Sequence record: SRR16203515_4350
Strand: one strand, 5' to 3'
Length of the DNA: 38,551 bases
Shown here: positions 6,232 through 18,853 of the stretch, piece after piece
Position numbering within the stretch: the first letter of the stretch is position 1
How the letters are laid out: every line of letters starts with the position of its first letter
The notes under the pieces: model-generated
Databases searched by the model: none
What the model saw: only the letters and a program-made list of their open reading frames with translations
Told to the model about the DNA's origin: nothing
Made by a program: the position numbers and the translations under genes

Positions 6232-6374
6232 TTTGTTGTTTTTTTACCGTGAAAGTTGAGCAATTTTTCAGCAACAAGTGTTAATGAGTACACTGTTTTT
6301 GTACAAAACCCTGTTTATTTTTGTAACAAGCAGTATACTAAAGCGCTCGAACGTAATAGAAGAAAGAAGACGAG

Positions 6375-6782
6375 ATGAAAAGAAAAAAGCATACCTCGGC
6401 TGAAGACGAGGCTCAGATTGATATGACCCCCATGTTGGACATCGTGTTCATCATGTTGATTTTCTTCATCGTAACGACCTCGTTCGTAAAAGAAAAAGGT
6501 TTGGACGCAAACCGTCCTGAAGACAATCAAGCTAAGAACGACAAGCCTTCTAAAGCGCTTTCTATCCGTATTGAGGCAGATGGCACCATTATGATGGGTG
6601 GTCGTGAAGTGGATATTCGTCGTGTTGTTGCAAATACGCAAACGTATCTTGCAGAAAACAATACAGACACAGCTGCAATCCAAGCTGATCAAGATACCGA
6701 GCACGGTACTGTGGTTGAAGTAATGAACCAAGTAAAAGTAGCGGGTATCGAAAAAGTATCTGTACTGGTTAAAAAGTCCTAA
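6375..6782 (+). CDS. exbD: ExbD/TolR family protein (orphan)
   Basis: IDMTPMLDIVFIMLIFFIVTTSF transmembrane segment with the conserved Asp; IQAD...HG.VV.VM periplasmic motif. Confidence 0.93.
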   Translation: MKRKKHTSAEDEAQIDMTPMLDIVFIMLIFFIVTTSFVKEKGLDANRPEDNQAKNDKPSKALSIRIEADGTIMMGGREVDIRRVVANTQTYLAENNTDTAAIQADQDTEHGTVVEVMNQVKVAGIEKVSVLVKKS

Positions 6783-6799
6783 AAGGGCTTGATAACTAT

Positions 6800-6827
6800 A
6801 AAAAAGCCGCCCTAGGGCGGCTTTTTT
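6800..6827 (+). terminator. Intrinsic terminator after exbD
   Basis: AAAAAAGCCGCCC-TA-GGGCGGCTTTTTT perfect dyad. Confidence 0.9.
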
Positions 6828-6954
6828 CGTATCGGATCTTATACCAAAGTATCTCTTGTTGTATCGCATAAATTCTGTTCAGATCGTAGTATCAGGCGCA
6901 TCTGGATAGCCATGTTGAAACGGTTCCAGACCCTGATGATACTGGAGCCAATTT

Positions 6955-8274
6955 ATGAAGATAGTTTGCAGTACGCTTGCCATTGTGATGGCATCGATGA
7001 GCTTGTCCCCTTCCGTTGAGGCCGGCCAAATTGCCTTAAGCGACGCCTTCGATTACAACGCCTTTATTATCGGCGATTACACGGGCTACAAATCAGATGT
7101 AGAAGGTACACTTGCCGTCGGCGGTAACCTAACCGTGTCAGACTTCGATATTGGCTTACAGCTTAGTCCTAATTTAACCACCAGTAGCCTCTATGTGGGC
7201 GGTAATACCAACTACGTAAACGGTACCATTCATCATGGGCAAACCACTGTTAACGGCAATCTCGAGGCCACAGGCGTCACCTTTGAAGGTGATATTAATG
7301 CAGTTGGCAATGTCAGCCTAAGTGAGTCGAAAGTCACTGCTGGGGATATCAATAGCCAAGGCTCACTGGTATTACAAAACGCTGAAGTGGTTAACGGCAA
7401 TGTCAGTGCAAATAACCTAGTTCAAAATGACAGCAGTGTTAACAGTGGCAATGTCAGCGCAGTCAATAATGCGACCCTTACCAATTCAGAAATCACCAGC
7501 GGGACACTATCAGCAACCATAGTATCGCTAGACGGGGATTCCACCGCAAATAGTGCGGTTACCACAGCCATAACGCCTCCCATAGATGTGCAGACCATCG
7601 ACTTCGATAAGCTAGCAAACGAAGTCATAGCGCAATCGCTCACCTTTGCCGACATGGCGGTTAACGGTGCTACCCAAGTTTATTGTGGCGGCGAAACCAA
7701 CTGTGATGCCAGTAATATAGATGGAATTGTGTTTTCGGGTAGCGAAAGTATCAATGTTTATGCAATCGATGCTGCATCACTTTCTGCGGCGAATAAAAGC
7801 ATTACTTACGACTTTTCTACCACCAGTTACAACATCATCAATGTATTCGGCGATAGCGTAGAGCTCTTTAACACAGGCTTTTATAACACTGCGTTCGCCG
7901 GTCAGTATGTAGATAATAATCCAGCCATAGACTATCGTCATGATGGCACTTACACTAATAATATATTGTTTAATTTCTTAGATGCTACCGATGTAAGCCT
8001 GCACTCTGTAGGTGTTAAGGGCAGTGTTTTGGCACCCTTTGCTAATGTAAGCTTTTATAATGGCCAAATTGATGGCAACTTAATCGCGGCATCCTTAAGT
8101 ACGCCAGAAATATTGCTGACCAACGATACTGGCGACACCTACCTAGCGCCAACTGGTCAGGTGAATAACTACCGCTTTGCTGCTATACAAGTTTCTGAGC
8201 CAACCAGCGGCTTTATGTTGCTACTTGCGTCATTATTGATGTTGAAACGTAGAGGGTTAAAGGGCAAACCCTGA
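6955..8274 (+). CDS. Secreted choice-of-anchor A domain protein with PEP-CTERM-like sorting tail
   Basis: Signal peptide ending VEA; YNAFI.GD...SDVEG.LAVGGN; NILFNF.DA; GSVLAP.A; G.IDG.LIA; C-terminal VSEP plus a hydrophobic helix plus KRR. Confidence 0.85.
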   Translation: MKIVCSTLAIVMASMSLSPSVEAGQIALSDAFDYNAFIIGDYTGYKSDVEGTLAVGGNLTVSDFDIGLQLSPNLTTSSLYVGGNTNYVNGTIHHGQTTVNGNLEATGVTFEGDINAVGNVSLSESKVTAGDINSQGSLVLQNAEVVNGNVSANNLVQNDSSVNSGNVSAVNNATLTNSEITSGTLSATIVSLDGDSTANSAVTTAITPPIDVQTIDFDKLANEVIAQSLTFADMAVNGATQVYCGGETNCDASNIDGIVFSGSESINVYAIDAASLSAANKSITYDFSTTSYNIINVFGDSVELFNTGFYNTAFAGQYVDNNPAIDYRHDGTYTNNILFNFLDATDVSLHSVGVKGSVLAPFANVSFYNGQIDGNLIAASLSTPEILLTNDTGDTYLAPTGQVNNYRFAAIQVSEPTSGFMLLLASLLMLKRRGLKGKP

Positions 8275-10617
8275 TAGGCGAGGCGACGAGCGAAGTAATT
8301 CATCACTGGTGACCCCATCTCCCTTACCGGGCCGCCAGCGCAACTGTATACCGGCTTCAAAAGCTTGGTACTGCACCGCAAAACTTCTGCCCACATAGGC
8401 CGCAACAAGCCAATGTTCGGAAACGCGATATTGCCCTTCCAGCATCACGTCACCACTTATACCGGTACTGGTATTGCTAGGTACTCGCAGGCTTTGTTGA
8501 CTCGTATCAGTGCTAAGTGGAAAACGCAGATTGTCTGTTTCACTTAGCCTAGACACCCCTAGCGAAGAACTTAATTTAACTTGCCAATGATGAGCTTCTT
8601 GGGTCAATAATTCTGAATAGACCCCCAAGCTTACCAGATAGTCAGGGCTAAAGTAGCCACCATGGCCATAGGTAAAGCCACTGAGATTTTTATCATAGCC
8701 AAGATAGCTAAGATAAGGGCCAACACGCCAATAATCTAACCGCTCAGATACGCTAGGGGCAATATTCACGCTCACGTCACTGCGTAACGATAGCGCATGG
8801 TTATCATCCACCCTCTCACCCTGTAACTGTTCCCATTTTATTGTTGCCGATAGCGACACCTGTGGTCTTACACTATAAGCCACTAAAGCCGATACCCCTT
8901 CGCCAATCACATAGCCCCAAGCATCGTTATGATCGGCATTAAAGGTGCCTGAATAGCTAAGTAAGCTATCTTGTTTGGGTAGTCGAAAAGCACTTGTCGC
9001 TATGGTCGTATCGGCTAAAAACCAGCTCGCTGACAGTTGACCGGTTACGCTTGCAGCAACGGGCTGATCAATGAGTGAGTAGGCAAGGTTGCCATAAAAA
9101 TTAACATTGTCAGTTTGTAGTTCAACTTCACCACGAATCCCGGTATCTTCCAACCCTGTGATCCCTGCAAAAGGCGCGGCAATTTGGCCGCTGGCAAACC
9201 AACTGTTACTGGCGGGCGTGCCACTGTATAACTGTTGATAATCGAGGGCAACTTGCCAACGCCACCTCGCCACGGTGCTGCCAACACCAACATAGCTACT
9301 TAACATATCAAAGTTGCCTAGCCCTATTTCGCCACTTCGTTGCTTTGTGGTGGCACCTGCAACTATATTCCATGCGGTTTTTGACTGTGCCGTGACAGCC
9401 CGAGGGTCGCCTGATAAGTAACTGTACATAAATTGCTTTCGCGGCCACGCCTTGGCTGTACGCAAAGCATTAACGTTAGCCCGTACCTGTGAATTAGCCC
9501 GCATCAAGGGCTCAAGTGGCTTGTCGTTGCGCTGATAAAGGCGAACAAGTTGGCCGGCAATATCTTGATTATTTGGCGCTAGTGTTAATGCATGGGTAAA
9601 CGCCTGTATGGCCAAGCCGTCTTGGCCCGCTTCACTGGCTGCCCAACCAAGTAAGGCATGTTCTTCTTCGCGAAGTGATCTTATTTGTTTAAGCGCTAAA
9701 CCAGCCTTTATACTTTGCTCAAGCTCACCTTGTTGATAGAAGCTCGCTTGTTGCTCGGCGTAGTAATTGGCACAACGTCTTAAAAATATCTCGTTGTTGT
9801 CCTGTTCACAGGCAAATCTAGCGGCGGCCCCAGAATTACCCGACTGCTGTAAACTCAGCCAACGCCCTTCTTGATTACCGGTTAACGCAAACCATTGCTG
9901 CGCTTGTATATAATTACCCTTGTCATAGTCTTTCCACCCTTGCGCGTCCACCAGCGTGAGAACCTGCGGGCGGTTATCAGCGGCTAACCAAGCTGCAATT
10001 TGTTCTATGTCATTACCCGCTATGGCATGGTTTATCTTAACTTGCTGTAATATAGAAAGGCCCTCGTCAGCGCTCTGCTTTTCTGCGCGGTTAGCAGCAA
10101 GCTGACCGGCTCGTGTAAAGTGGTGCTCCGCCTTTTCAAGCCATGCTTTATTCAGTGCCGTCCAGCCCATTAGCAGATGATAATCGTTACGCGCTAGGTT
10201 ATCCGCTAACTGGGATAACTGACTGAACCGGGCCTCACTGATAGCGGCACGCTTGCCTTCAGACCATGCGGAAAAAGCTGCAAGCGGAGCATCCTTTGCT
10301 GGCTTACTCGCCCCTTTCAGCTTGGTTTTGGGTGGGTTATTAAGCTTATCTAACGCCGCCACCAGCTCATCCGACATTGTCCAATTCGGGTAAGTTCGGG
10401 TTAACCGTGCTGCTTCTTGGTTGGCTAAATTCCGTTGTTGTTTATTAATGTGATACCACAGGCCGGTGACATCTGGCGCTACTTCCACCACCGTTTTAGG
10501 TTGCTCATCTTGGGATTTATAGGTGGTGGTTACCTGTGCCACGACCTGCTCACTTGTGAGCCCAATAGCCGTAAAAGCCCCACTTAATATCAGGTAACTC
10601 AGCCGTCGCTGGCTCAT
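8257..10617 (-). CDS. bcsC: Cellulose synthase outer-membrane protein C (short TPR region plus beta-barrel)
   Basis: Signal peptide; TPR-like helices (GW..Y..G.Y..A..WF; LGWAA...G...LA...F..AL.LAP); barrel motifs DSLLSYSG and FTYGHGGYFSP; operon context. Confidence 0.85.
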   Translation of the reverse strand: MSQRRLSYLILSGAFTAIGLTSEQVVAQVTTTYKSQDEQPKTVVEVAPDVTGLWYHINKQQRNLANQEAARLTRTYPNWTMSDELVAALDKLNNPPKTKLKGASKPAKDAPLAAFSAWSEGKRAAISEARFSQLSQLADNLARNDYHLLMGWTALNKAWLEKAEHHFTRAGQLAANRAEKQSADEGLSILQQVKINHAIAGNDIEQIAAWLAADNRPQVLTLVDAQGWKDYDKGNYIQAQQWFALTGNQEGRWLSLQQSGNSGAAARFACEQDNNEIFLRRCANYYAEQQASFYQQGELEQSIKAGLALKQIRSLREEEHALLGWAASEAGQDGLAIQAFTHALTLAPNNQDIAGQLVRLYQRNDKPLEPLMRANSQVRANVNALRTAKAWPRKQFMYSYLSGDPRAVTAQSKTAWNIVAGATTKQRSGEIGLGNFDMLSSYVGVGSTVARWRWQVALDYQQLYSGTPASNSWFASGQIAAPFAGITGLEDTGIRGEVELQTDNVNFYGNLAYSLIDQPVAASVTGQLSASWFLADTTIATSAFRLPKQDSLLSYSGTFNADHNDAWGYVIGEGVSALVAYSVRPQVSLSATIKWEQLQGERVDDNHALSLRSDVSVNIAPSVSERLDYWRVGPYLSYLGYDKNLSGFTYGHGGYFSPDYLVSLGVYSELLTQEAHHWQVKLSSSLGVSRLSETDNLRFPLSTDTSQQSLRVPSNTSTGISGDVMLEGQYRVSEHWLVAAYVGRSFAVQYQAFEAGIQLRWRPGKGDGVTSDELLRSSPRLSGFAL

Positions 10618-11690
10618 GATGTAACATCCATTACAGCAAGACGTGAGAGCATAATTAAGCTGGCCGAGTAATAATCCGTTTTTCGATTTATCTCAGCGAA
10701 TTTCACCGGCTCGTGGCGAATAAGGTGGGCTACCGCGTTGGCCACGGTTTGCATTCCCGCCGTCATTTCATATTCGGCGGTTTGTTCGCTCACCAAATTA
10801 ACAGTGGCTGGCACCGATGGCTGGTTCCAGAAAGAAAAGAAAGCAGAATACACCTCAGGAGCCGCTACATTCGCCCATGCCAGATGAAGAGGAATGCGAC
10901 AGGCATTAAAGCCATACTCTTGCGACTGGGTGTACTCTAGGGTAAAGCTATCGCCCTCAAGCCCCAGCCAATCCGGGGGAAGCTGATAGGAACTAAAGCG
11001 TGCATCGGCAATAAGTGCTGTGCCGCTTGCAAATAATTGCTGCCACTGTGAAGGCGTTGTCGACACCTTGGCAATGGCTTCAAGGGCAGGAAACACCCAA
11101 TAGGATAAATTTACCTGTAGCCTGTTTTTTTGCGGGTTATCATCTGTTTGATGAACAAAGCCATGCTCACCGGGCAAAAGTAAACTGTACTGCTCGGTAT
11201 GGTAAAAAAGCGACGATTCTATTGCCGAGATAATGGACAAGGCGGCCTTGTAATAGCTATCTTCATCCCACTTGTCAGCCGCCCGCAGCAATGCCCAAGC
11301 AATCAGTAGATCGCCATCAGAGGCATTATTGGGATCATCAATGCAGGTCTTATCCTTGTTATCACAAGGTACATAGCGCCAAAAGAACAAGCTATCGTCT
11401 CGCTGCAATACCTCTTGTGTCCATTGCCAAATGGCATCGAAGGTGTCTCTGTCATTAGCCGCTACAGAAAACAACATGCCATAGCCTTGGCTTTCACTGT
11501 GAGATACGTTTTTATTGCCTGTATCGACTACACGCCCCTCGTCGATAAACAAGGCCTTATACCCTTGATAGGCGTTGTTAAACTCCTTATTTTCCGGCTT
11601 GCTGCATGAACTCATTACACACACCATAATAGCCAACAAGCATAGTCGCCAGCTCGTTAATACATAATGACGTGACATTAACGCTACCAT
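10614..11690 (-). CDS. bcsZ: GH8 endoglucanase, probable lipoprotein
   Basis: GRVVDTGN, SHSESQGYGM (catalytic Glu), NNASDGDLLIAWAL, NLSYW; lipobox-like VMSS-C. Confidence 0.92.
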   Translation of the reverse strand: MVALMSRHYVLTSWRLCLLAIMVCVMSSCSKPENKEFNNAYQGYKALFIDEGRVVDTGNKNVSHSESQGYGMLFSVAANDRDTFDAIWQWTQEVLQRDDSLFFWRYVPCDNKDKTCIDDPNNASDGDLLIAWALLRAADKWDEDSYYKAALSIISAIESSLFYHTEQYSLLLPGEHGFVHQTDDNPQKNRLQVNLSYWVFPALEAIAKVSTTPSQWQQLFASGTALIADARFSSYQLPPDWLGLEGDSFTLEYTQSQEYGFNACRIPLHLAWANVAAPEVYSAFFSFWNQPSVPATVNLVSEQTAEYEMTAGMQTVANAVAHLIRHEPVKFAEINRKTDYYSASLIMLSRLAVMDVTS

Positions 11691-13957
11691 GATTCTTGAA
11701 TTTGTTTGTTTCTACGTTTGAGTAACAAGTAAATCAATAGACTTACGAAGAAGACCAATAGTAAAAACGATACCAGCCAATACCAGGGGTTATTTGACAA
11801 CCAAAGGCGTAAGGTCAACCAGTAATTATTCGCCTCTCCAAGCTCAAACTTTTCGCTGACCTGCATGACAAGTTTAGGCGATAAGGCATCGTCCCAAACG
11901 AAAAAGTCACCGGCTAACTGGCCCCACAATGACAGACTAATTAAGTCGTTCATGCGCGCAAATAAATACTCTGGTGTTTGCGCCGTAATAATAAACATGG
12001 TGTCTGTTGTACTGCTTCTAGGGTGCTTTTCGGCCAGTAATATGGCCTGTTCACCTAACCCGCTCTGTTGCACGGTAGCCCCGGTTACCCGCATCTGCCG
12101 ATAAGACTCATCATTCGTTAAGTCTCTTACCCGATTGTGGAGCTCATTTTGTAAACGATAGGGCCAGCGTTTCACGTTGCCCACCGCCGTAGCAAAACTA
12201 TCTTGCTCTATCGCATCTAGGGAATCGGGGGTACCTAATACAATGAGCGAGCCTTCGGCTTTGCTTGCTAATTCATCGACGATAGCTAAATTTAATAACG
12301 GCGTTTGCGCCACTTGCGCTAGCTTACCCGATAAGGTTAACGCACTGTCCAGATATGCTGCAGAGGGAATATAAATACTGCCCACCGGCGCACTTGAGAA
12401 ACGGGCAAATGGGTAGGCAGTCTCGCTAAACAACCCTAAATCAGGCTGTACCGCCACATGTCCCGCATCAGGTAAGGAAATACTGGAGGAGTTATTCACT
12501 TGAAACACCAAATGGGAACCAAATACATCGTCACAGGGAACCCCGGCTAATGGCGCTCGCATGGTGGCACTGATATCAAGATTATTAATACCGCCTTTGA
12601 AAAACCGTGCAGGAATACGCAATTGATAGTCTCTAAAGGCTTCACCATTTTCATCACCAAAATAAAGCCCATGAACTAACTCGCCGTTGACACTGACGTT
12701 CATAATAGAGCCTGGCCCAGTACCAGCACCATAGCTAAAGTCTAGCAATAGCGCCACACTGGCATTTTCGGGGACGTAGAAATCAGCGGGCAGACGAAAA
12801 GTCACCTGCTTGGTAAAATCGCCTTCATCAATAAAGCGTTCACTGGCCACGCCTAGGTCGTCAAAACTATACTGTTCCCCCGGGGTAAGTACCCGCTTTC
12901 GTTGCAGTTGCTCAGGTAGCATCTGGGTTTGCGATACCACGCGAATAGCCGATACTGGGCTTAGTACGTCATCCATTACGGCAAGGGCTTTCGCTGCTTG
13001 ATACACCTCTTCTTGTGTGTCACCGCTCACAATCAAACGGTAAGCTGGCCCTACGAGGGTTTTATTACCCGCAACAAAGCTCGCGGTACGCTCCATTTTT
13101 AAATAAGCACCATCAATGTCATTAATAATATCATCAGACAAAATGAGCGAGAGTTCTTCTACCGTCCCCACCACAACGTGCACCTTATCGGCGTGAGGCT
13201 CATCGATATACCACGCCGAATGCTCATAGCTATCTACCCGGGACTCGTTCCAAAACAAGTCTTGCGTTGGGTCTAACGCTGGTAGTACATACCCATCAGG
13301 AAGAACCGTTTGGCGAATAGATAGCGGCTGATATTGATTACGCAGTGCCAAAGCTTGCGCTACTAGGGGTAAAGTTTTTTGTTGTAATTGAGGGTCCGCA
13401 TCCGCGCCAGTAATCATACTTACCTGGCGTTGCCCGCCAATGCCGGGATTGAAAAATCCGGCCAAGTGGGAAAGTGTCACCTCTTCAATAGCAAGGCGAG
13501 TATCGACACTTAAGCTTGAGTTATAAACGTTAACTTCACTCCAAAGTTCAGGGGCACTTCCATCGACACATTGCTCAGCGTAGTGCTGGCTTACCGCCAA
13601 AGTTAGCTGATTGAACCCTTCACGCCATAGCTCCACGGGAATATTAATACGCGAAGTTAAACTGGTGCGGTTAGGATCAAAGGCTATTTGACCAATGGTG
13701 GCGTTATTGAACCGCACATACAACTGCGAACGTCGCTTAATCAACGCCTGAGAGCTGGTCACCTCAAGGGTAATGGAAGAGGACGTTACATCATGAATTG
13801 AGGTAAGGGGAATAGCGATATCAAAACTGTTGGATTTCCCTTGCAAGCGCACCACACCATCGCCGCCGTAGAAGTCGGTTAACCGATAGGTATGGGTATC
13901 ACCATAGGCACCAACGGAGAGAAAATACAAACATACCATTAACAGGGTTTTATACAT
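11684..13957 (-). CDS. bcsB: Cellulose synthase periplasmic subunit B
   Basis: Signal peptide; C..GSAPELWSEV; F.LPAD; PDL.LF..TAYPF; C-terminal amphipathic helix plus TM anchor (WLSNNPW...LLKRR). Confidence 0.92.
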   Translation of the reverse strand: MYKTLLMVCLYFLSVGAYGDTHTYRLTDFYGGDGVVRLQGKSNSFDIAIPLTSIHDVTSSSITLEVTSSQALIKRRSQLYVRFNNATIGQIAFDPNRTSLTSRINIPVELWREGFNQLTLAVSQHYAEQCVDGSAPELWSEVNVYNSSLSVDTRLAIEEVTLSHLAGFFNPGIGGQRQVSMITGADADPQLQQKTLPLVAQALALRNQYQPLSIRQTVLPDGYVLPALDPTQDLFWNESRVDSYEHSAWYIDEPHADKVHVVVGTVEELSLILSDDIINDIDGAYLKMERTASFVAGNKTLVGPAYRLIVSGDTQEEVYQAAKALAVMDDVLSPVSAIRVVSQTQMLPEQLQRKRVLTPGEQYSFDDLGVASERFIDEGDFTKQVTFRLPADFYVPENASVALLLDFSYGAGTGPGSIMNVSVNGELVHGLYFGDENGEAFRDYQLRIPARFFKGGINNLDISATMRAPLAGVPCDDVFGSHLVFQVNNSSSISLPDAGHVAVQPDLGLFSETAYPFARFSSAPVGSIYIPSAAYLDSALTLSGKLAQVAQTPLLNLAIVDELASKAEGSLIVLGTPDSLDAIEQDSFATAVGNVKRWPYRLQNELHNRVRDLTNDESYRQMRVTGATVQQSGLGEQAILLAEKHPRSSTTDTMFIITAQTPEYLFARMNDLISLSLWGQLAGDFFVWDDALSPKLVMQVSEKFELGEANNYWLTLRLWLSNNPWYWLVSFLLLVFFVSLLIYLLLKRRNKQIQESW

Positions 13958-16200
13958 TACTTATCCTTAGCGGCTTGCCGTTGTGCCTTCAACCTTTGAA
14001 AACCATGCTGCAAACTAACCATAATATGAATGAGAGTGGGTTTTAATCCAACTTTAAGTACGTGCTTTACGCCATACCAAAAAGAAATTGGCCGCGTTCG
14101 CCTGCGCTGAAAAGATTGCCAACGTCGACTGTCACACAGGCTGTAAGCAACCACATCAACCTGCTCTTGTTCCGAGGTTGGGGTAAACTTAACCCGCAAT
14201 ACTTTGCTTTCAACATCAAAACCCAGTACCTGAATACGCAGGTTTACATTAGATTTTATCGCTTCACACCAAGATGTTAATACGACATTAGACGGAATTT
14301 TACTGCAATCCCCTTTGAGTTTAAGCCGTGCGCCCCCTGCCGACAAATCGATAAGGTCGCCTACCCATGCTTGTCCGTCTTGGGTTTTAATGACCACGTT
14401 GTCCGTAGCGGGCAAACGAGACTGATTACGCACTTGTTTACGCTCGAGTAAGACGCTCATCACGCTCAATAGCAACAAAAGATTAAAAGTATTCCATAAC
14501 ATTACCACTACCGTTAATTCACGGGTTAAGGGCTCGTTAAAAAATTTGTAGGCTCCTGCTACTGTGGCAAACGTGAGCACTGCGATTAGCCAATAAAAAA
14601 CTGTCGATAAGGGTGAAACAAAGGTCTTGTCTAAGCTTTCCCCTTTCGGCGTTACCACAAACGAAGGGGCTCGGGGTTTAAGAAAAACTTTAATCAATGC
14701 ATTTAGGGTAAAAGCGCATTGCAATATTTCATACAGTTCAGAGACGAGGGGCCATCGCGTTCGTCCGAACAACATGGTCGATAGCATGTAGGTGGCAATA
14801 ACATGCGGGATGGTAAATGCGAGAATTTCGAGCATGGAGGCATGGTATACCTGTAAGCCAAATACCAAATACGCCAATGGCATCAACAAAAACACGATGC
14901 GGGCAAAGGGGAACAACCAGAACATGATAGAGCTCATATAGCCTACCCGCTGATACCACTTTAGCCCTTCTGCTTTATAGGGCTTTTTGAGCAAGAGTAT
15001 TTGTGTCATGCCCTGTGCCCAACGCATCCGCTGCTGAATAAACGCATCAAAGGTTTCAGGTGCCAGACCGCTTACCATGGGGCGATCTACATAGACTGAC
15101 TCATAGCCCATTTTATGTAAATCGAGGGCAGTTTCCGCATCTTCGGTAATAGAGTCACCGGAAATGCCGCCCACTAAAGCTAAGTGCTCTCGGCGCATTA
15201 ACGCGGCAGAGCCACAAAAAAATGAACTAGACCAGTAATCGAGTCCTTTCTGAATAGTGCCATAGAACATATCATTCTCTGACGGCATACGGGTAAATGC
15301 AGAAAAGTAATTGCGTTCTACTGGGTCGGGATTAGCCATAAAATGCGGAGTTTGTACCAGGAACACTTTCTTCTTTTTAATCATCCAGGGTACGGTACGG
15401 GCGAGGAAATCACTGGTAGGCACATGATCCGCATCCAGGATCACAATAAGCTCACCGTCGGTGTTCTCTATGGCACTGTTTACATTTCCAGCCTTTGCAT
15501 GCAGGTTTTTCTCACGGGTGTGGTAGGTCGCGCCGAGCCGCTGGCATAGCATTTGTAAGTTTTTTCTACGCTCACGTGCTTGGCTGGCTGCCGCCTTATC
15601 TGACTGGTTAAGCTTTTGATCCGTACCACCATCATCTAATAGGTGAATAGCCACTTTGCCTTTGGGGTAATCCATCAATTTAGCCGCTCGGATGGTTATC
15701 TCTAAGATCTCTTGTGATTCGTTGTAGCTGGGGATCATGACATCTACGGTAGGCACATCTTCCACCTCCATCTCGCGAAGCAATAAGGCAGGACGAGTTA
15801 AGGGGAAGGCATTAACAATGCAACCTAATACCGACGTGATACCGGCGTAAATTTCTGCCGCAAATAAAAGCCACACGGCAATAAGAGAGAAAAAGTCGGT
15901 TGCCGTTAGCGTATATAAGCCACGCCACAGCAAGTAGCGAAATGTTAGCGCCACACCGAGTACCAGTGCTAATGTTTTAAACAAGTATTGAAAACGCTGA
16001 GGGTATGCTGCCTCTTTGCTACATAAAGAAATAATAGCCAGCACGACGGCAGATGAAACCAGTTGCCCTGCGGCGTCCATAGGCGCAAGCAGCAAAAGCC
16101 CAAGCAGTGCTGCTACGATAACAAGAACAATCAAATATTGACTGGTATAATGCTTACTTGCGAGAGAACTGTCCAATATGGTTGTCCGTAACGTTGACAT
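13957..16200 (-). CDS. bcsA: Cellulose synthase catalytic subunit (GT2 plus PilZ)
   Basis: DDG, HAKAGN, DADH, QTPH, FFCGS, TED, QRMRW, FVVTPK gating loop; PilZ RNQSR (RxxxR) and DLSAGG (DxSxxG). Confidence 0.98.
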   Translation of the reverse strand: MSTLRTTILDSSLASKHYTSQYLIVLVIVAALLGLLLLAPMDAAGQLVSSAVVLAIISLCSKEAAYPQRFQYLFKTLALVLGVALTFRYLLWRGLYTLTATDFFSLIAVWLLFAAEIYAGITSVLGCIVNAFPLTRPALLLREMEVEDVPTVDVMIPSYNESQEILEITIRAAKLMDYPKGKVAIHLLDDGGTDQKLNQSDKAAASQARERRKNLQMLCQRLGATYHTREKNLHAKAGNVNSAIENTDGELIVILDADHVPTSDFLARTVPWMIKKKKVFLVQTPHFMANPDPVERNYFSAFTRMPSENDMFYGTIQKGLDYWSSSFFCGSAALMRREHLALVGGISGDSITEDAETALDLHKMGYESVYVDRPMVSGLAPETFDAFIQQRMRWAQGMTQILLLKKPYKAEGLKWYQRVGYMSSIMFWLFPFARIVFLLMPLAYLVFGLQVYHASMLEILAFTIPHVIATYMLSTMLFGRTRWPLVSELYEILQCAFTLNALIKVFLKPRAPSFVVTPKGESLDKTFVSPLSTVFYWLIAVLTFATVAGAYKFFNEPLTRELTVVVMLWNTFNLLLLLSVMSVLLERKQVRNQSRLPATDNVVIKTQDGQAWVGDLIDLSAGGARLKLKGDCSKIPSNVVLTSWCEAIKSNVNLRIQVLGFDVESKVLRVKFTPTSEQEQVDVVAYSLCDSRRWQSFQRRRTRPISFWYGVKHVLKVGLKPTLIHIMVSLQHGFQRLKAQRQAAKDK

Positions 16201-16657
16201 GGGTCACGTAAGCATAGTTCGCACGGTTAATTAATGTCACTTTATTACCCTGGATATCAAGTTCATGATTGCTTTGATAGAACCTTCTCGAGATTGCATC
16301 TCGTCGTTTGCGGCTATCTTTACCAATCAGTAACCAAGCAGGATACGTAATAACACCAAAAGCCATTGTCACGAACAGGGCAAAAAACACCGCAGGGGGT
16401 AGCGTGGGGGCCATGTAGAGTGAAAAAATTAGCGTTCCCAAACTAGCAACGGTGAACACTGCGGTAAGTTTACGCAAACGATTCACTTTTAGCAGCATAG
16501 TTTCTGAACGAACATACATGTACAAACGATTTTTCCACAGCTGCTCCGTTTCTACACTAGTACGGGTATCCACCAACGCAGGCGCGGGATATCCACTCCA
16601 GTCATGTGCAAACTCAACAGCGGTGTTAAATTGATGTAGTTCTACTACGTTCGGCAT
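16154..16657 (-). CDS. Hypothetical 2-TM membrane protein, first gene of the bcs operon
   Basis: 167 aa from ATG 16657, which follows GGGGAG (alternative ATG at 16690); hydrophobic hairpin AVFTVASLGTLIFSLY...AVFFALFVTMAFGVITYPAWLLIG followed by a basic patch; overlaps bcsA by 47 nt. Confidence 0.75.
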   Translation of the reverse strand: MPNVVELHQFNTAVEFAHDWSGYPAPALVDTRTSVETEQLWKNRLYMYVRSETMLLKVNRLRKLTAVFTVASLGTLIFSLYMAPTLPPAVFFALFVTMAFGVITYPAWLLIGKDSRKRRDAISRRFYQSNHELDIQGNKVTLINRANYAYVTHVNVTDNHIGQFSRK

Positions 16658-16853
16658 ATAGGCCACTCCCCAACAGTACAGCGTAAGCATACTTTTGCTT
16701 ACCCCGAGGAAAAATCGCTAACTTCATACTTACTGATTACAAAGTATACGTTCAAACCTTGGTGGGGAAATTGAACTTTCGCCTAACAAATAGCATAAAA
16801 CATTGATTTAAAAGCTTTTAACCAAAGAAAAAGTAGACTAAAGTGCAATATTA

Positions 16854-17357
16854 TTAGCCCTTTGGAGTGGCTTTTTCGGTATATATTTTAGTTAAAATAC
16901 TGACCAAGTTACTGATATTAAATACGGTCCCAAAGATACTGCCTACTGATATGGCATACAGGAGCCCGAGAAATTCGGCGAGCAAAAAGTAGCGTCTTAT
17001 TTTGCCAGCGTCGCGCAGAACAATAGACCCTACGGTAAAAATGAGTGAGGAAGCATAGGCAATAAAAATTATAGCGCCGTGGTGGAGCACAAACCATTCA
17101 TAAAGAAGAAACCCAAGGTTCGCGGCTACAAAGAAAAACAAAATAAATCGACTTCTGTTTTTCAATGCAATGATGTTACGCAAACTCGCTAAAGACGTGC
17201 CTACTCCCGCCGCCATGGCATCTAACATAAAAAAGTGAGCGCTTAATGCCGCTAACGCAAAAGCAGAGATAAGCAGATATCGGTCTACGTGATTTTGACG
17301 GTAGCCAATAAAATTTAGCACCACCGCCAATGCACCAAACGCTTCTGCCACTATCAT
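16854..17357 (-). CDS. YgjV-family inner-membrane protein
   Basis: Very hydrophobic 167 aa; AHFFML.A..AG....L..LRN pattern and C-terminal GSI.G. Confidence 0.75.
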   Translation of the reverse strand: MIVAEAFGALAVVLNFIGYRQNHVDRYLLISAFALAALSAHFFMLDAMAAGVGTSLASLRNIIALKNRSRFILFFFVAANLGFLLYEWFVLHHGAIIFIAYASSLIFTVGSIVLRDAGKIRRYFLLAEFLGLLYAISVGSIFGTVFNISNLVSILTKIYTEKATPKG

Positions 17358-17373
17358 AATTGCAATAACCCTA

Positions 17374-18087
17374 TCAAAATTTTAAATAAAACGGCCGACA
17401 CAAGTGTTTGTATTGCTCTGTATAACTTCCATCGGCGTCTCTTATGATTAGCGCTTCCTCGGTTGTGTCTCTACTTGCCAAACCAAAGCAGTATGCATTC
17501 ACATAAGGGGAGGATTGATGACTATGACTAACACGCAAAATAGCTTGTATCGTCAATCCATACGCTTGGGCACTACGTCTGGTTTCATTTTCATAGTTGG
17601 TGGGATACAAGCAATAGCCACGCCCTGCTGGCGAAAGCCGTGCAGCCATAGCAGCAAATAGCGTCTCAGGGGTAAGGGAAATGTATTGACGAGCCTGCTC
17701 TCGCTGGCGAGATTGTGTGCGATATGCCGCGCTTGGTTTATGTTGGGCCGTAAAGTAAGGCGGGTTAGTAATAATGAGATCATAATCTTTACCTGCATGC
17801 TGGCTAATATCGCATTGCGACACCTTCACCTTGTTCGGCCATGGCGAAGCTGCCACGTTTTGTCTAGCCTGTAACACTGCCCCTTCGTCGATATCAATCG
17901 CCTCGACTATCGCTTCACTCATGGTTCGTTGCGCCATCATTAACGCTAAAATACCGGTGCCTGTGCCAATATCAAGCACCTGCCGTGCTTGATTAATGGT
18001 TGCCCAACTGCCCAATATCAAGCTATCGGTATTTACTTTCATGGCACAGTTATTTTGCTGTACGGTAAATTGTTTACACTTAAACAT
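17374..18087 (-). CDS. yfiC: tRNA1(Val) (adenine37-N6)-methyltransferase
   Basis: F..KQF.V.Q..CAMKV.TD..ILG.W; LDIGTGTG; DLIITNPPYF; C-terminal FYLKF. Confidence 0.93.
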   Translation of the reverse strand: MFKCKQFTVQQNNCAMKVNTDSLILGSWATINQARQVLDIGTGTGILALMMAQRTMSEAIVEAIDIDEGAVLQARQNVAASPWPNKVKVSQCDISQHAGKDYDLIITNPPYFTAQHKPSAAYRTQSRQREQARQYISLTPETLFAAMAARLSPAGRGYCLYPTNYENETRRSAQAYGLTIQAILRVSHSHQSSPYVNAYCFGLASRDTTEEALIIRDADGSYTEQYKHLCRPFYLKF

Positions 18088-18170
18088 GAGTTAGGTCGTC
18101 TCGTTATTTATTAGCACTCGCTCACTTACGTGGAATATATGCTTAAGTGATGAATATGGCGATAAGCGGT

Positions 18171-18794
18171 TTAAGCCCATCGCTGCAACGCCATCATGTT
18201 TCTGGCCACATCCGTCGCGTGTACCGGACGATATTTTTTAAGCGGGCCTTTCATTAAACTTTGCCACACAGGGGCCGTTTTTTTCGCAATATCTTCTAAC
18301 ACCCGGGTGTCTTCTCTATCACCGAGCAAGAGTGAGGGGCGCACTGCAGAGGCATGGGGCAATTGGGGCATACGCATAATGGCATTTTCCAACTCGCCTT
18401 TTACCCGTAAGTAAAAGTTGCTGCTGCTTGCATCAGCACCTACCGATGATACCCATACGAAGCTATCAGCCCGTTGTGCCCGGGTTAGTTGCGCGGCAAT
18501 ATGAATATACTCGAAATCTACTCGCCGAAAGGCAGCTTTAGAGCCCGCTCGCTTTAACGTGGTACCTAAACAGCAATACACATGGTCAACGCTGAAATAG
18601 CCTTGATAATCTTGAAAAGCGTCAAAGTCGATAACCACAGGTTTTAATTTATTGTCAGGGTCACGGTAGTGCTCGCGAGCTAAAGGCTTGCGTACTAAAC
18701 ACGTCACTTCTTGGTATCGGCGGTCTTGTAATAATATATTTACTAACGCTCGTCCCACTAAACCTGTCGCTCCCAGCATCATTGCAGATTTCAT
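18171..18794 (-). CDS. NAD(P)H-binding protein, YraR/TIP30(HTATIP2)-like
   Basis: GATGLVG; CCLGTT.K.AGS..AF..VD; VSSVGAD...FYL.VKG; RPSLLLG.R. Start set at the ATG after AAGGTG. Confidence 0.9.
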   Translation of the reverse strand: MKSAMMLGATGLVGRALVNILLQDRRYQEVTCLVRKPLAREHYRDPDNKLKPVVIDFDAFQDYQGYFSVDHVYCCLGTTLKRAGSKAAFRRVDFEYIHIAAQLTRAQRADSFVWVSSVGADASSSNFYLRVKGELENAIMRMPQLPHASAVRPSLLLGDREDTRVLEDIAKKTAPVWQSLMKGPLKKYRPVHATDVARNMMALQRWA

Positions 18795-18853
18795 ACTTCG
18801 CACCTTGTATCATCTAATAGTTTCTCTACAATCAACCCTTCGACAGTTAAAAT

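Follow-up and report, generated by a model that had tools for sequence, protein, structure and literature searches.

A core-only Alteromonas-type cellulose operon with a conserved small membrane protein gene ahead of bcsA

Introduction

Classes of cellulose secretion system are distinguished by accessory subunits, which decide how the synthase is regulated, where it is localised and how its product is modified. The locus described here, in which a core set of bcs genes follows a small gene outside the known protein families, therefore raises two questions: to which class of system does it belong, and what does the small gene contribute? A sequence-only reading of this DNA had proposed a hybrid and novel operon, orfX-bcsA-bcsB-bcsZ-bcsC, and had called for a BcsA phylogeny, a survey of gene neighbourhoods and a genome search for the missing accessory genes. 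All three were carried out, the last of them in five relatives.

According to the available text of two reviews (PMC8892547, PMC7112194), bcsABZC is the canonical core. Type III systems are described, in the accessible parts of PMC8892547 and PMC9113090, as lacking bcsD, bcsE and bcsG and as confined to certain cyanobacteria and alphaproteobacteria; the former adds that they often carry BcsK, a barrel-less TPR protein, in place of BcsC, and places the Rhodobacter sphaeroides system among them. A bcs operon with a BcsA/B/C/Z set was reported in 2014 from A. australica DE170 as part of a strain-specific genomic island and was interpreted, in the text available to us, as serving cellulose production for the extracellular matrix (PMC4119200).

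Results

Layout of the operon

The window, that is the whole stretch of 38,551 nucleotides that was analysed, carries five overlapping genes on its minus strand between positions 8257 and 16657, and the ORF list and the profile matches confirm these coordinates exactly as first read. A further gene, possibly associated, lies outside the operon on the plus strand.

16154..16657, minus strand: orfX, orphan inner-membrane protein of 167 aa (178 aa for the longer ORF from the first ATG at 16690)
13957..16200, minus strand: bcsA, short-form c-di-GMP-gated cellulose synthase catalytic subunit, 747 aa
11684..13957, minus strand: bcsB, periplasmic co-polymerase subunit, 757 aa
10614..11690, minus strand: bcsZ-type GH8 endoglucanase gene, 358 aa
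8257..10617, minus strand: bcsC, short form, 786 aa
6955..8274, plus strand: gene for a choice-of-anchor A / ice-binding-like adhesive-domain protein, possibly associated, outside the operon

With longest-ORF starts, the successive overlaps from orfX to bcsC are 47, 1, 7 and 4 nt. All five reading frames are intact. Our comparisons covered 25 Alteromonas-type genome loci, 37 metagenome loci, 401 genomes of the same GTDB family and five related Alteromonas genomes. Of the relatives found, A. profundi is the nearest, its BcsA being 88% identical.

The small gene ahead of bcsA

The orfX product matched no Pfam or NCBIfam model, even at E <= 10, so that the leader gene is indeed of no recognised family, and neither structural nor family comparison gave a relative that points to a function. 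Behind a variable N-terminus, the protein consists of a conserved helix, two transmembrane (TM) helices (residues ~64-84 and ~88-112) and, on the cytoplasmic side, a conserved C-terminal module of three strands. Its AF2 model, which is of moderate confidence (mean pLDDT 67.9), shows helices at residues 34-82 and 88-128 and strands at 131-155. The family comprises 41 representatives, and 12 residues are invariant across 13 sequences of 31-58% identity; FY-SNHE and LINR are among the motifs that hold invariant residues. Two known names were considered for it. The database name IgaA ('intracellular growth attenuator') on the Salinimonas homologues looks like an over-annotation: PF07095 was matched by 3 of 27 family members with a best E of 0.022, and the window orfX did not match it. 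For BcsN, PF17038 gave no match to orfX at E <= 10 and 266 bits for the upstream gene of Rhizobium.

The gene-neighbourhood survey found the orfX-led order, with orfX upstream of bcsA, at all 25 genome loci and all 37 metagenome loci. Of the 401 family genomes, 48 encode a BcsA above the cut-off, which is of the short form in 16 and of the long form in 32. A same-strand orfX immediately precedes bcsA in 15 of the 16 genomes with the short form, compared with none of the 32 with the long form. The remaining short-form genome (G037) has a class III cyclase gene in place of orfX. Therefore, orfX is not obligatory for the short-form synthase. Upstream of bcsA in the sister BcsA lineage (L029) lies an ORF that is distantly homologous to orfX (hhalign probability 95%, E 3.7e-8).

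Could orfX be a mere translated leader, such that its translation controls bcsA expression by way of the 47-nt overlap while the peptide itself is idle? Its stop does lie inside the bcsA start region, both in the window and in 17 of the 17 Alteromonas loci listed, and no evidence from family, fold or partner speaks for a function of the protein. Against this, the protein is constrained: comparison with the A. profundi copy gave a dN/dS of 0.23 with differences biased to third positions, and conserved residues as well as the two-TM topology are kept down to 20-30% identity. The family moreover persists in lineages with differing overlaps and flanks (L085, L086, L029), and a membrane protein of 150-190 aa would not be maintained if the gene acted purely as a leader. 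We therefore regard the leader explanation as unlikely. Judged by its substitution pattern, orfX is a real gene under purifying selection. It is the sole unrecognised part of the operon and a clade-specific addition to the cellulose core.

PgaD, the partner of PgaC, is a small two-TM inner-membrane protein with a cytoplasmic tail and is encoded in the synthase operon; BcsF and BcsR are small E. coli proteins of the cellulose synthase operon, BcsF being located in the inner membrane. OrfX resembles PgaD and BcsF as a small inner-membrane protein from a GT2 synthase operon, and PgaD also in its two TM helices. However, it has no detectable similarity to either in sequence or fold and does not match PF11120 (BcsF) or any other Pfam family, and its gene precedes the synthase gene, unlike pgaD. 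By analogy, orfX may serve the short-form lineage as an accessory subunit in the inner membrane, one that assembles with BcsA-BcsB, stabilises it or tunes it.

The cellulose core and its product

BcsA passes the TIGR03030 (CelA) cut-off with 793.6 bits against 699.1. All GT2 motifs are present (DDG189, DAD256, FFCGS327, TED352 and QRMRW390), as is a PilZ domain (PF07238 on residues 589-686) with RKQVR587 for RxxxR and DLSAGG618 for DxSxxG; the catalytic and PilZ motifs are invariant in an alignment of 16 rows. BcsB matches PF03170 with 228 bits, begins with a signal sequence and is anchored by a C-terminal TM segment (~723-749); its scores against the E. coli and R. sphaeroides BcsB proteins are both weak (51-56 bits). 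The GH8 protein, encoded between bcsB and bcsC, matches PF01270 with 184 bits and carries an N-terminal signal, possibly of the lipoprotein type. It stays below the enterobacterial BcsZ equivalog NF008305 (144 vs 299), and its best solved relatives (6vc5, 5czl, 5gy3, 1wzz) score 175-196 bits compared with 70 bits for E. coli BcsZ (3qxf), which upholds the earlier view of it as type-III-like rather than E. coli-like.

BcsC had been said to contain a barrel, and this holds: residues 450-761 match PF05420 (BCSC_C) with 147.8 bits, and 6tzk scores 44 bits. The protein has a signal peptide, and its AF2 model (mean pLDDT 79.4) shows ~22 TPR-like helices (51-410) and a barrel of 16 strands (417-761). 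The protein is far under the E. coli-type equivalog NF008520 (63.8 vs 858). As modelled, BcsC is a miniaturised version, in which a TPR scaffold of about half the usual size precedes the outer-membrane barrel of 16 strands.

The product might instead be another or a modified beta-glucan, for example a mixed-linkage polymer or one decorated by enzymes encoded elsewhere. BcsA-like GT2 enzymes also make other glucans, the identity of a polymer cannot be read from sequence, and the BcsZ and BcsC equivalog models were not reached. Nevertheless, we see only a slight chance of this, since BcsA exceeds the curated cellulose-synthase equivalog-domain cut-off and, with BcsB, GH8 and a barrel-bearing BcsC beside it, makes up the canonical set for cellulose. 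In addition, no BcsG was found in the related genomes and no acyltransferase gene adjoins the operon in the window.

Conservation of the locus and its flanks

Across the 25 genome loci, gene order and overlaps are maintained and the operon proteins are 42-88% identical. In 19 of these loci, DPP4 and CLCA_X are both retained as outer flank genes. One Alteromonas locus (L025) has no GH8 gene, and at another (L023) the BcsA and BcsB matches are fragmented.

The product of the plus-strand gene at 6955..8274 matches PF20597 (138 bits) and TIGR04215 (143 bits), is predicted to be secreted and ends in a PEP-CTERM-like tail (C-terminal SEP, TM segment and KRR). The gene runs towards bcsC, and the 3' ends of the two overlap by 18 nt. 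Of the Alteromonas-type loci that reach past bcsC, 20 of 23 have this gene there, and it recurs in L085 despite otherwise different flanks. Each of the five related genomes has one exosortase.

An accessory island that is silent or in decay and serves no function at present would fit the patchy distribution of the short form (16 of 401 family genomes), the strain-specific island of A. australica DE170 described in the available text of PMC4119200, and the state of the L025 and L023 loci. It is nonetheless very improbable given the five intact frames with every catalytic and PilZ motif present in the window, and given that protein identity, order and overlaps are maintained across the 25 loci as described above.

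Class assignment

We then asked which class of system the operon represents. Pfam scans of the other window ORFs of at least 100 aa did not find BcsQ, BcsE, BcsG, BcsD (PF03500) or GGDEF domains, and no acetylation genes were found at the locus. The earlier statement that the window lacks accessory and cyclase genes therefore stands for these; BcsR and BcsF are too small for this ORF list, and for them it holds in the immediate surroundings of the operon. BcsE, BcsG, BcsR and BcsF were each absent from all five related Alteromonas genomes that carry the operon, three of which are complete chromosomes, while the E. coli controls were positive. BcsD was likewise found in none of the five, in a search run without a positive control. 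The best matches to the BcsQ model in these genomes reached at most 41 bits and were ParA/MinD-like, compared with 94-126 bits for true BcsQ. GGDEF matches numbered 43-58 in each. By analogy with these five relatives, the window's own strain would also lack the accessory genes elsewhere in its genome.

The BcsA sequence gives a corresponding picture. It scores 498 bits against R. sphaeroides BcsA (residues 25-629) and 379 bits against E. coli BcsA, and the alignment to the latter begins at E. coli residue 151, so that the ~150 N-terminal residues of the enterobacterial protein are missing. It falls below the enterobacterial equivalog NF008558 (463 vs a cut-off of 992). In a tree of 30 rows it groups with type III synthases of Rhizobiales and is split from 12 long-form synthases of its own family with an SH-aLRT of 100. 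Because BcsA is nearer to that of R. sphaeroides and forms a branch separate from its family's classical type II synthases, the earlier reading of it as type-III-like and not type II of the enterobacterial or Vibrio kind is supported.

Type I, defined by bcsD, and type II, defined by bcsE and bcsG (frequently with bcsQ, R and F) together with an NF008558-type BcsA with N-terminal extension, are both at odds with the window. Since bcsD, bcsE and bcsG are missing, the operon counts as type III under the definition given in the available review text. Other traits of that type differ: BcsC has a barrel where BcsK would have none, the BcsN leader (PF17038) known from subtypes like IIIb is not present, and the relatives are Alteromonas, which are gammaproteobacteria. 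By content, the operon is core-only and type-III-like, with BcsC replacing BcsK. Nothing points to a joining of parts from different origins, and we have dropped the term 'hybrid'. 'Novel system' was also too strong, because the canonical core consists of bcsABZC and a bcs operon of Alteromonas has been in print since 2014, as far as the available text of PMC4119200 goes. The cluster is a real and largely ordinary Alteromonas cellulose operon; what is new is orfX ahead of this synthase lineage.

Comparison with described systems places it further. The R. sphaeroides BcsA-BcsB complex (4hg6, 4p00, 5ej1) is the best solved relative of the window BcsA, with the same short form, the same GT2 and PilZ motifs and a tail-anchored BcsB; the window operon differs by its BcsC barrel and by orfX. 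The Rhizobiales type III operons of the order bcsN-bcsA-bcsB-bcsZ-bcsK (such as L027, Rhizobium sp. Root1212) likewise have a leader of unknown function followed by bcsA-bcsB-GH8, lack bcsD, bcsE and bcsG, and encode a BcsA on the same side of the tree (39-42% identity). However, their leader is BcsN (266 bits to PF17038, 335 aa), which is unrelated to orfX, their last gene encodes a barrel-less TPR protein, and their hosts are alphaproteobacteria. The E. coli-type bcsRQABZC-bcsEFG clusters, which also occur in the same GTDB family (L083, L084), share the A-B-Z-C order, a PilZ-gated BcsA and a BcsC with TPR and barrel, but their BcsA is of the long form (840-900 aa, 30-37% identical to that of the window) in a separate clade, and their BcsC has 1270 aa compared with 786. 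The family's long-form operons that were fetched contain bcsQ (4 of 4, 94-126 bits) and, where the upstream flank was scanned, a divergent bcsE plus bcsG (2 of 2). A. australica DE170 belongs to the same genus and has the BcsA/B/C/Z set, a likeness drawn from its published description; the available text makes no mention of a small gene upstream of bcsA (PMC4119200). Although classical type II clusters exist in the family, a type II system with bcsQ, R, E, F and G elsewhere in the genome is scarcely credible here, considering the short-form BcsA without E. coli extension, its place in the tree and the missing BcsE, G, R and F in the five operon-bearing relatives.

Discussion

We consider it probable that the locus is a chromosomal, genus-conserved Alteromonas operon for cellulose synthesis and secretion, restricted to the core, making plain cellulose and using orfX as an accessory to BcsA-BcsB. 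In this model, c-di-GMP would gate BcsA via its PilZ domain, and BcsA would polymerise UDP-glucose and, together with tail-anchored BcsB, push the beta-1,4-glucan through the inner membrane. The chain would be trimmed by the periplasmic GH8 enzyme and exported across the outer membrane by the miniaturised BcsC. OrfX would form a two-TM hairpin with both ends in the cytoplasm, its translation being coupled to that of bcsA. Because BcsG, BcsE, BcsR, BcsF and true BcsQ were not found at the locus or in the five relatives, nor acetylation genes at the locus, we infer from gene content that the product is most likely unmodified cellulose and that regulation would run solely through PilZ, by cyclases encoded elsewhere.

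A more far-reaching proposal is plausible, even if we lean slightly against it. In one lineage of gammaproteobacterial cellulose synthases (Alteromonas, Salinimonas and a Thiohalomonadaceae MAG), the orfX family would be a clade-defining subunit that has so far escaped recognition, a two-TM inner-membrane protein whose cytoplasmic beta-module docks on BcsA and which takes over the assembly or activation role that BcsQ/R/E/F have in type II systems or PgaD has for PgaC. The operon and the convergent PEP-CTERM adhesin gene would then make up a cellulose-plus-adhesin attachment module of marine particle colonisers.

If orfX is dispensable, the locus is an ordinary core bcs operon. If orfX binds BcsA, this family, which Pfam and NCBIfam do not cover, would be a new kind of synthase partner for a well-studied machine, and BcsA-BcsB with the mini-BcsC would offer a compact system for structural work. 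Belonging to neither type I nor type II, this gammaproteobacterial lineage combines a bare core and a half-length BcsC with a conserved small membrane protein of its own. Since Alteromonas rank among the major colonisers of marine particles, the cellulose module, perhaps together with the adhesin, is a testable determinant of attachment.

Gene content of the operon

The sequence-only reading had described five genes, each overlapping the next, between positions 8257 and 16657. The ORF listing agrees with this arrangement and its coordinates; all five genes are on the minus strand, and successive genes overlap by 47, 1, 7, and 4 nt at the listed starts. Names were assigned by Pfam and NCBIfam scans to four of the five genes; the first, orfX, found no match even at E ≤ 10.

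Genes of the bcs operon
16657..16154, minus: orfX, 167 aa (178 aa from an alternative upstream ATG at 16690)
16200..13957, minus: bcsA, 747 aa, TIGR03030 at 793.6 bits (cut-off 699.1), with a PilZ domain
13957..11684, minus: bcsB, 757 aa, PF03170 at 228 bits
11690..10614, minus: GH8 gene (bcsZ-type glucanase), 358 aa, PF01270 at 184 bits
10617..8257, minus: bcsC, 786 aa, PF05420 barrel at 148 bits

The operon thus encodes an intact and complete BcsA-BcsB-GH8-BcsC set with a PilZ gate. No BcsQ, BcsE, BcsG, BcsD, or GGDEF protein was detected by Pfam scans among the remaining window ORFs of at least 100 aa, which bears out the earlier statement that these accessory and cyclase genes are missing here. 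Otherwise the window consists of ordinary chromosome, with genes for Nqr subunits, DinB, peptidases, and an amino-acid catabolic cluster. A promoter and terminator scan of positions 7900-17500 gave the same counts as shuffled sequence. Upstream of the operon (16854-18803, minus strand), and separated from orfX by 196 nt, lie genes for an SDR-type NAD-binding protein, a TrmN-like tRNA methyltransferase, and a YgjV-family membrane protein. Their synteny with the operon extends to most Alteromonas loci, and they are probably mere neighbours. The signal region of the GH8 protein (10614-11690, minus strand) ends in V-M-S-S-C, a lipobox-like arrangement with the cysteine after small residues, and judging from this motif the glucanase may be a lipoprotein instead of a soluble periplasmic enzyme.

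BcsA belongs to a short-form lineage

All catalytic and c-di-GMP-binding motifs of BcsA are present (DDG189, DAD256, TED352, QRMRW390, FFCGS327, RKQVR587, DLSAGG618), and they are invariant across 16 aligned sequences. The protein matches R. sphaeroides BcsA (4hg6, 4p00, 5ej1) at 498 bits and E. coli BcsA (7lby, 9b8v, 9fmv) at 379 bits, the latter alignment starting only at E. coli residue 151. It is therefore a short form that lacks the N-terminal extension of enterobacterial BcsA, and its score on the enterobacterial equivalog NF008558 fell short (463 versus 992).

Of 401 genomes examined from the same GTDB family, 48 encode a BcsA above the cut-off. The long form was found in 32 of the 48 (845-914 bits; frames of 840-960 aa, or BcsA-BcsB fusions of about 1470 aa), and the short form in the other 16 (767-825 bits; frames of 738-750 aa). 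bcsQ was present in all four long-form contexts fetched (94-126 bits). Two of the long-form loci, L083 and L084, in which the upstream flank was scanned, are textbook type II operons with the order bcsQ-A-B-Z-C, a 1270-aa BcsC, and divergent bcsE and bcsG. In the fusions (loci L055, L057, L060, and L087 in genomes G173, G383, and G199), which belong to the long form, the open frame spans 1460-1484 aa, with bcsQ in front and a 1384-aa bcsC behind.

A quick IQ-TREE analysis of BcsA (30 rows, LG+G4, SH-aLRT support, unrooted, with a long-branch warning for L082 and L087) united 12 orfX-linked short forms in one group (support 99), sister to the BcsA of a Thiohalomonadaceae lineage (99). These sequences, together with Rhizobiales type III proteins and the short form of genome G037, were split from 12 long forms with a support of 100. 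For BcsA, the one subunit for which a tree was built, the proposed type-III-like affinity is therefore supported, apart from the type II long forms of the same family.

GH8 is likewise closer to 6vc5, 5czl, 5gy3, and 1wzz (175-196 bits) than to E. coli BcsZ (3qxf, 70 bits). The AlphaFold model of BcsC (mean pLDDT 79.4) contains about 22 helices in residues 51-410 followed by 16 strands in residues 417-761, a layout in agreement with the 6tzk barrel family. As modelled, the protein is a BcsC in miniature, not a BcsK. All orfX-linked operons encode a BcsC of 778-849 aa, compared to 1270-1384 aa for the BcsCs matched in L083 and L087, two long-form contexts of this family.

Accessory genes in related genomes

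Five related operon-bearing genomes (G001-G005, three of them complete chromosomes) stood in for the window's own genome in a genome-wide search for accessory genes. BcsG, BcsE, BcsR, and BcsF were found in none of the five, while the E. coli control was positive for each; BcsD was also found in none, with no control genome positive either. The BcsQ model did match in all five, but only at 22-41 bits; it also matches ParA/MinD-like proteins in 14 of 14 control genomes, whereas true BcsQ in this GTDB family scores 94-126 bits. No recognised modification or cytosolic accessory subunits are encoded at the locus or in the related genomes. GGDEF genes are abundant in these relatives (43-58 matches per genome), so the c-di-GMP input can come from outside the locus.

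Conservation of the operon

Scanning species-representative genomes with BcsA yielded 30 loci. In 25 of them, BcsA is 70-88% identical to the window protein (23 titled Alteromonas, two MAGs with the same flanks), the nearest being that of A. profundi; the others are one Thiohalomonadaceae MAG (51%) and four Rhizobiales (39-42%). By tblastn of the window proteins, the order orfX-bcsA-bcsB-bcsZ-bcsC is kept in the Alteromonas-type loci, orfX is found in 25/25, and both outer flank genes (DPP4-like peptidase, CLCA_X) are retained in 19/25. Locus L025 (Alteromonas sp. D210916BOD_24) lacks the GH8 gene in its operon as well as the neighbouring adhesin and YgjV genes. In L023 (A. gracilis J4) the BcsA and BcsB matches are fragmented (835-aa and 274-aa frames), which could be due to frameshifts, pseudogenes, or assembly errors.

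A metagenome scan with orfX alignment A4 returned 37 loci, in all of which bcsA directly follows orfX; 36 of the 37 passed the orfX-bcsA distance threshold, and in the remaining one, L101, 350 nt separate orfX from the BcsA match. Since this narrow alignment recovered almost only Alteromonas-like loci, the scan adds depth, not breadth. The sequencing runs listed for the stretch itself are four seawater-metagenome DNA rows of one study, with no RNA run among them. Taken together, the genome, metagenome, and seawater occurrences indicate that this Alteromonas locus is chromosomal, conserved, and no isolated case.

orfX encodes a conserved small membrane protein

The N-terminus of OrfX is variable (pLDDT <50 over residues 1-31). 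Next comes a conserved helix that bears a W-x-x-R-L motif and continues into TM1. A short loop containing proline leads to TM2, after which a basic stretch precedes a three-strand module with F-Y-x-S-N-H-E and L-I-N-R motifs. From the distribution of charges, both ends appear to be cytoplasmic. Relative to the A. profundi copy, dN/dS is 0.23 and differences are biased to the third codon position; 12 alignment columns are invariant in 13 sequences that are 31-58% identical to the window copy. orfX is therefore a real gene. One could argue that it acts as a coupling leader only, but this explanation is disfavoured because orfX is conserved at the protein level.

The family is small. Against 1.84 billion representatives, the orfX profile matched only 41 proteins at E ≤ 0.001 and 25 at E ≤ 1e-10, nearly all of 130-190 aa. 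One match, the 2422-aa Big_3/LRR/dockerin surface protein P0031, was weak and repeated and was judged spurious. Where relatives carry a name, it is "hypothetical protein" in Alteromonas and "intracellular growth attenuator family" protein in Salinimonas. The latter label (IgaA) is not backed by Pfam, as only 3 of 27 members match, with a best E of 0.022; at E ≤ 1, these 27 members otherwise gave scattered weak Pfam/NCBIfam matches typical of two-TM proteins (DUF2207_C in 6, 8xMP in 4). A Foldseek search of the PDB with the OrfX model returned nothing at E ≤ 0.001 and generic helical hairpins only, and the ESM Atlas held no named neighbour (top score 0.86, to an unnamed cluster).

orfX tracks one BcsA lineage

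Among the 401 same-family genomes, orfX was strongly matched (E ≤ 2e-12) in 15, each time with a short-form bcsA directly after it in the same orientation. It is thus found in 15/16 short-form genomes and 0/32 long-form genomes. Six further matches (E 1e-4 to 1e-3), short or interrupted by stops, were regarded as noise. When 400 genomes of the whole class were sampled, orfX reached E ≤ 1e-5 in none of the other 399 genomes scored. In the one short-form genome without orfX, G037 (locus L082), its place directly upstream of bcsA is taken by a gene for a class III nucleotidyl cyclase of 300 aa (PF00211, 84 bits; G037:C32, 6186-7088). After this short-form bcsA come bcsB and a 1105-aa bcsC, and no GH8 gene lies between those two.

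The sister-lineage BcsA of the Thiohalomonadaceae MAG (locus L029) is preceded by a 150-aa two-TM ORF that is a distant orfX member: it matches the divergent subgroup A6 with an hhalign probability of 95% (E 3.7e-8), and the A6 and A1 orfX profiles match each other at E 1.2e-29. This operon (9151-18496) consists of the orfX-like gene, bcsA, bcsB, GH8, a gene for a 537-aa TPR protein without barrel, and bcsG (410 bits), and so pairs a BcsK-like component with BcsG, a hallmark of type II. Its composition indicates that orfX tracks the BcsA clade and not one fixed set of other accessory genes. orfX is thus a tightly linked, constrained small membrane protein gene.

A convergent adhesin gene

Two plus-strand genes lie beyond bcsC.

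Plus-strand genes next to bcsC
6955-8274, plus: choice-of-anchor A/ice-binding-like adhesive-domain protein with a PEP-CTERM-like tail (SEP, TM segment, KRR)
6375-6782, plus: ExbD/TolR-family protein, 135 aa, PF02472 at 112 bits, alone between the CLCA_X/LPD1 and adhesin genes

The adhesin gene is convergent with bcsC and overlaps its end by 18 nt. Of the 23 Alteromonas-type loci that reach that far, 20 have this gene after bcsC. It is also found in locus L085 (11176-12300, minus), whose other flanks differ, and each of the five related genomes has one exosortase gene. Operon and adhesin may form a cellulose-plus-adhesin module. "orf184" (6315..6869, minus, 184 aa) is an antisense artefact of odd composition opposite the ExbD/TolR gene.

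Classification and proposed mechanism

In PMC8892547, PMC9113090, PMC6559018, and PMC9012009, type I operons are defined by bcsD and type II operons by bcsE/G. The sequence-only reading had called the BcsA and GH8 sequences type-III-like. For the operon as a whole, a likeness to type III stands insofar as bcsD, bcsE, and bcsG, whose absence marks type III in these descriptions, are all lacking and BcsA is nearer to that of R. sphaeroides than to that of E. coli; it does not extend to the BcsC, which is not a BcsK, to BcsN, which is missing, or to the organism, which is outside the type III taxa described there. The suggestion of a novel system was too strong: bcsABZC is repeatedly named as the core (PMC8892547, PMC7112194), and a "complete" bcs operon (BcsA, B, C, Z) of A. 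australica DE170 was reported in 2014 (PMC4119200). The main text of Bundalovic-Torma 2020 has no mention of Alteromonas, and its supplementary operon tables may list the clade. No description of the gene upstream of bcsA was found in a literature search on Alteromonas cellulose synthase, bcs genes, and biofilm. The operon is best described as a genuine Bcs member: a core-only, type-III-like variant of gammaproteobacteria that has a mini-BcsC and an orphan membrane protein specific to its clade; the label "hybrid" is unproven.

We propose that c-di-GMP from distal cyclases would open BcsA, and that BcsA-BcsB would make and translocate unmodified beta-1,4-glucan, to be trimmed by GH8 and exported by the short BcsC. 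By analogy with PgaD-PgaC, BcsF, and BcsR, OrfX would be an inner-membrane accessory subunit that aids the folding, assembly, or response of BcsA. The OrfX-BcsA partnership is the part of this system that deserves experiment.
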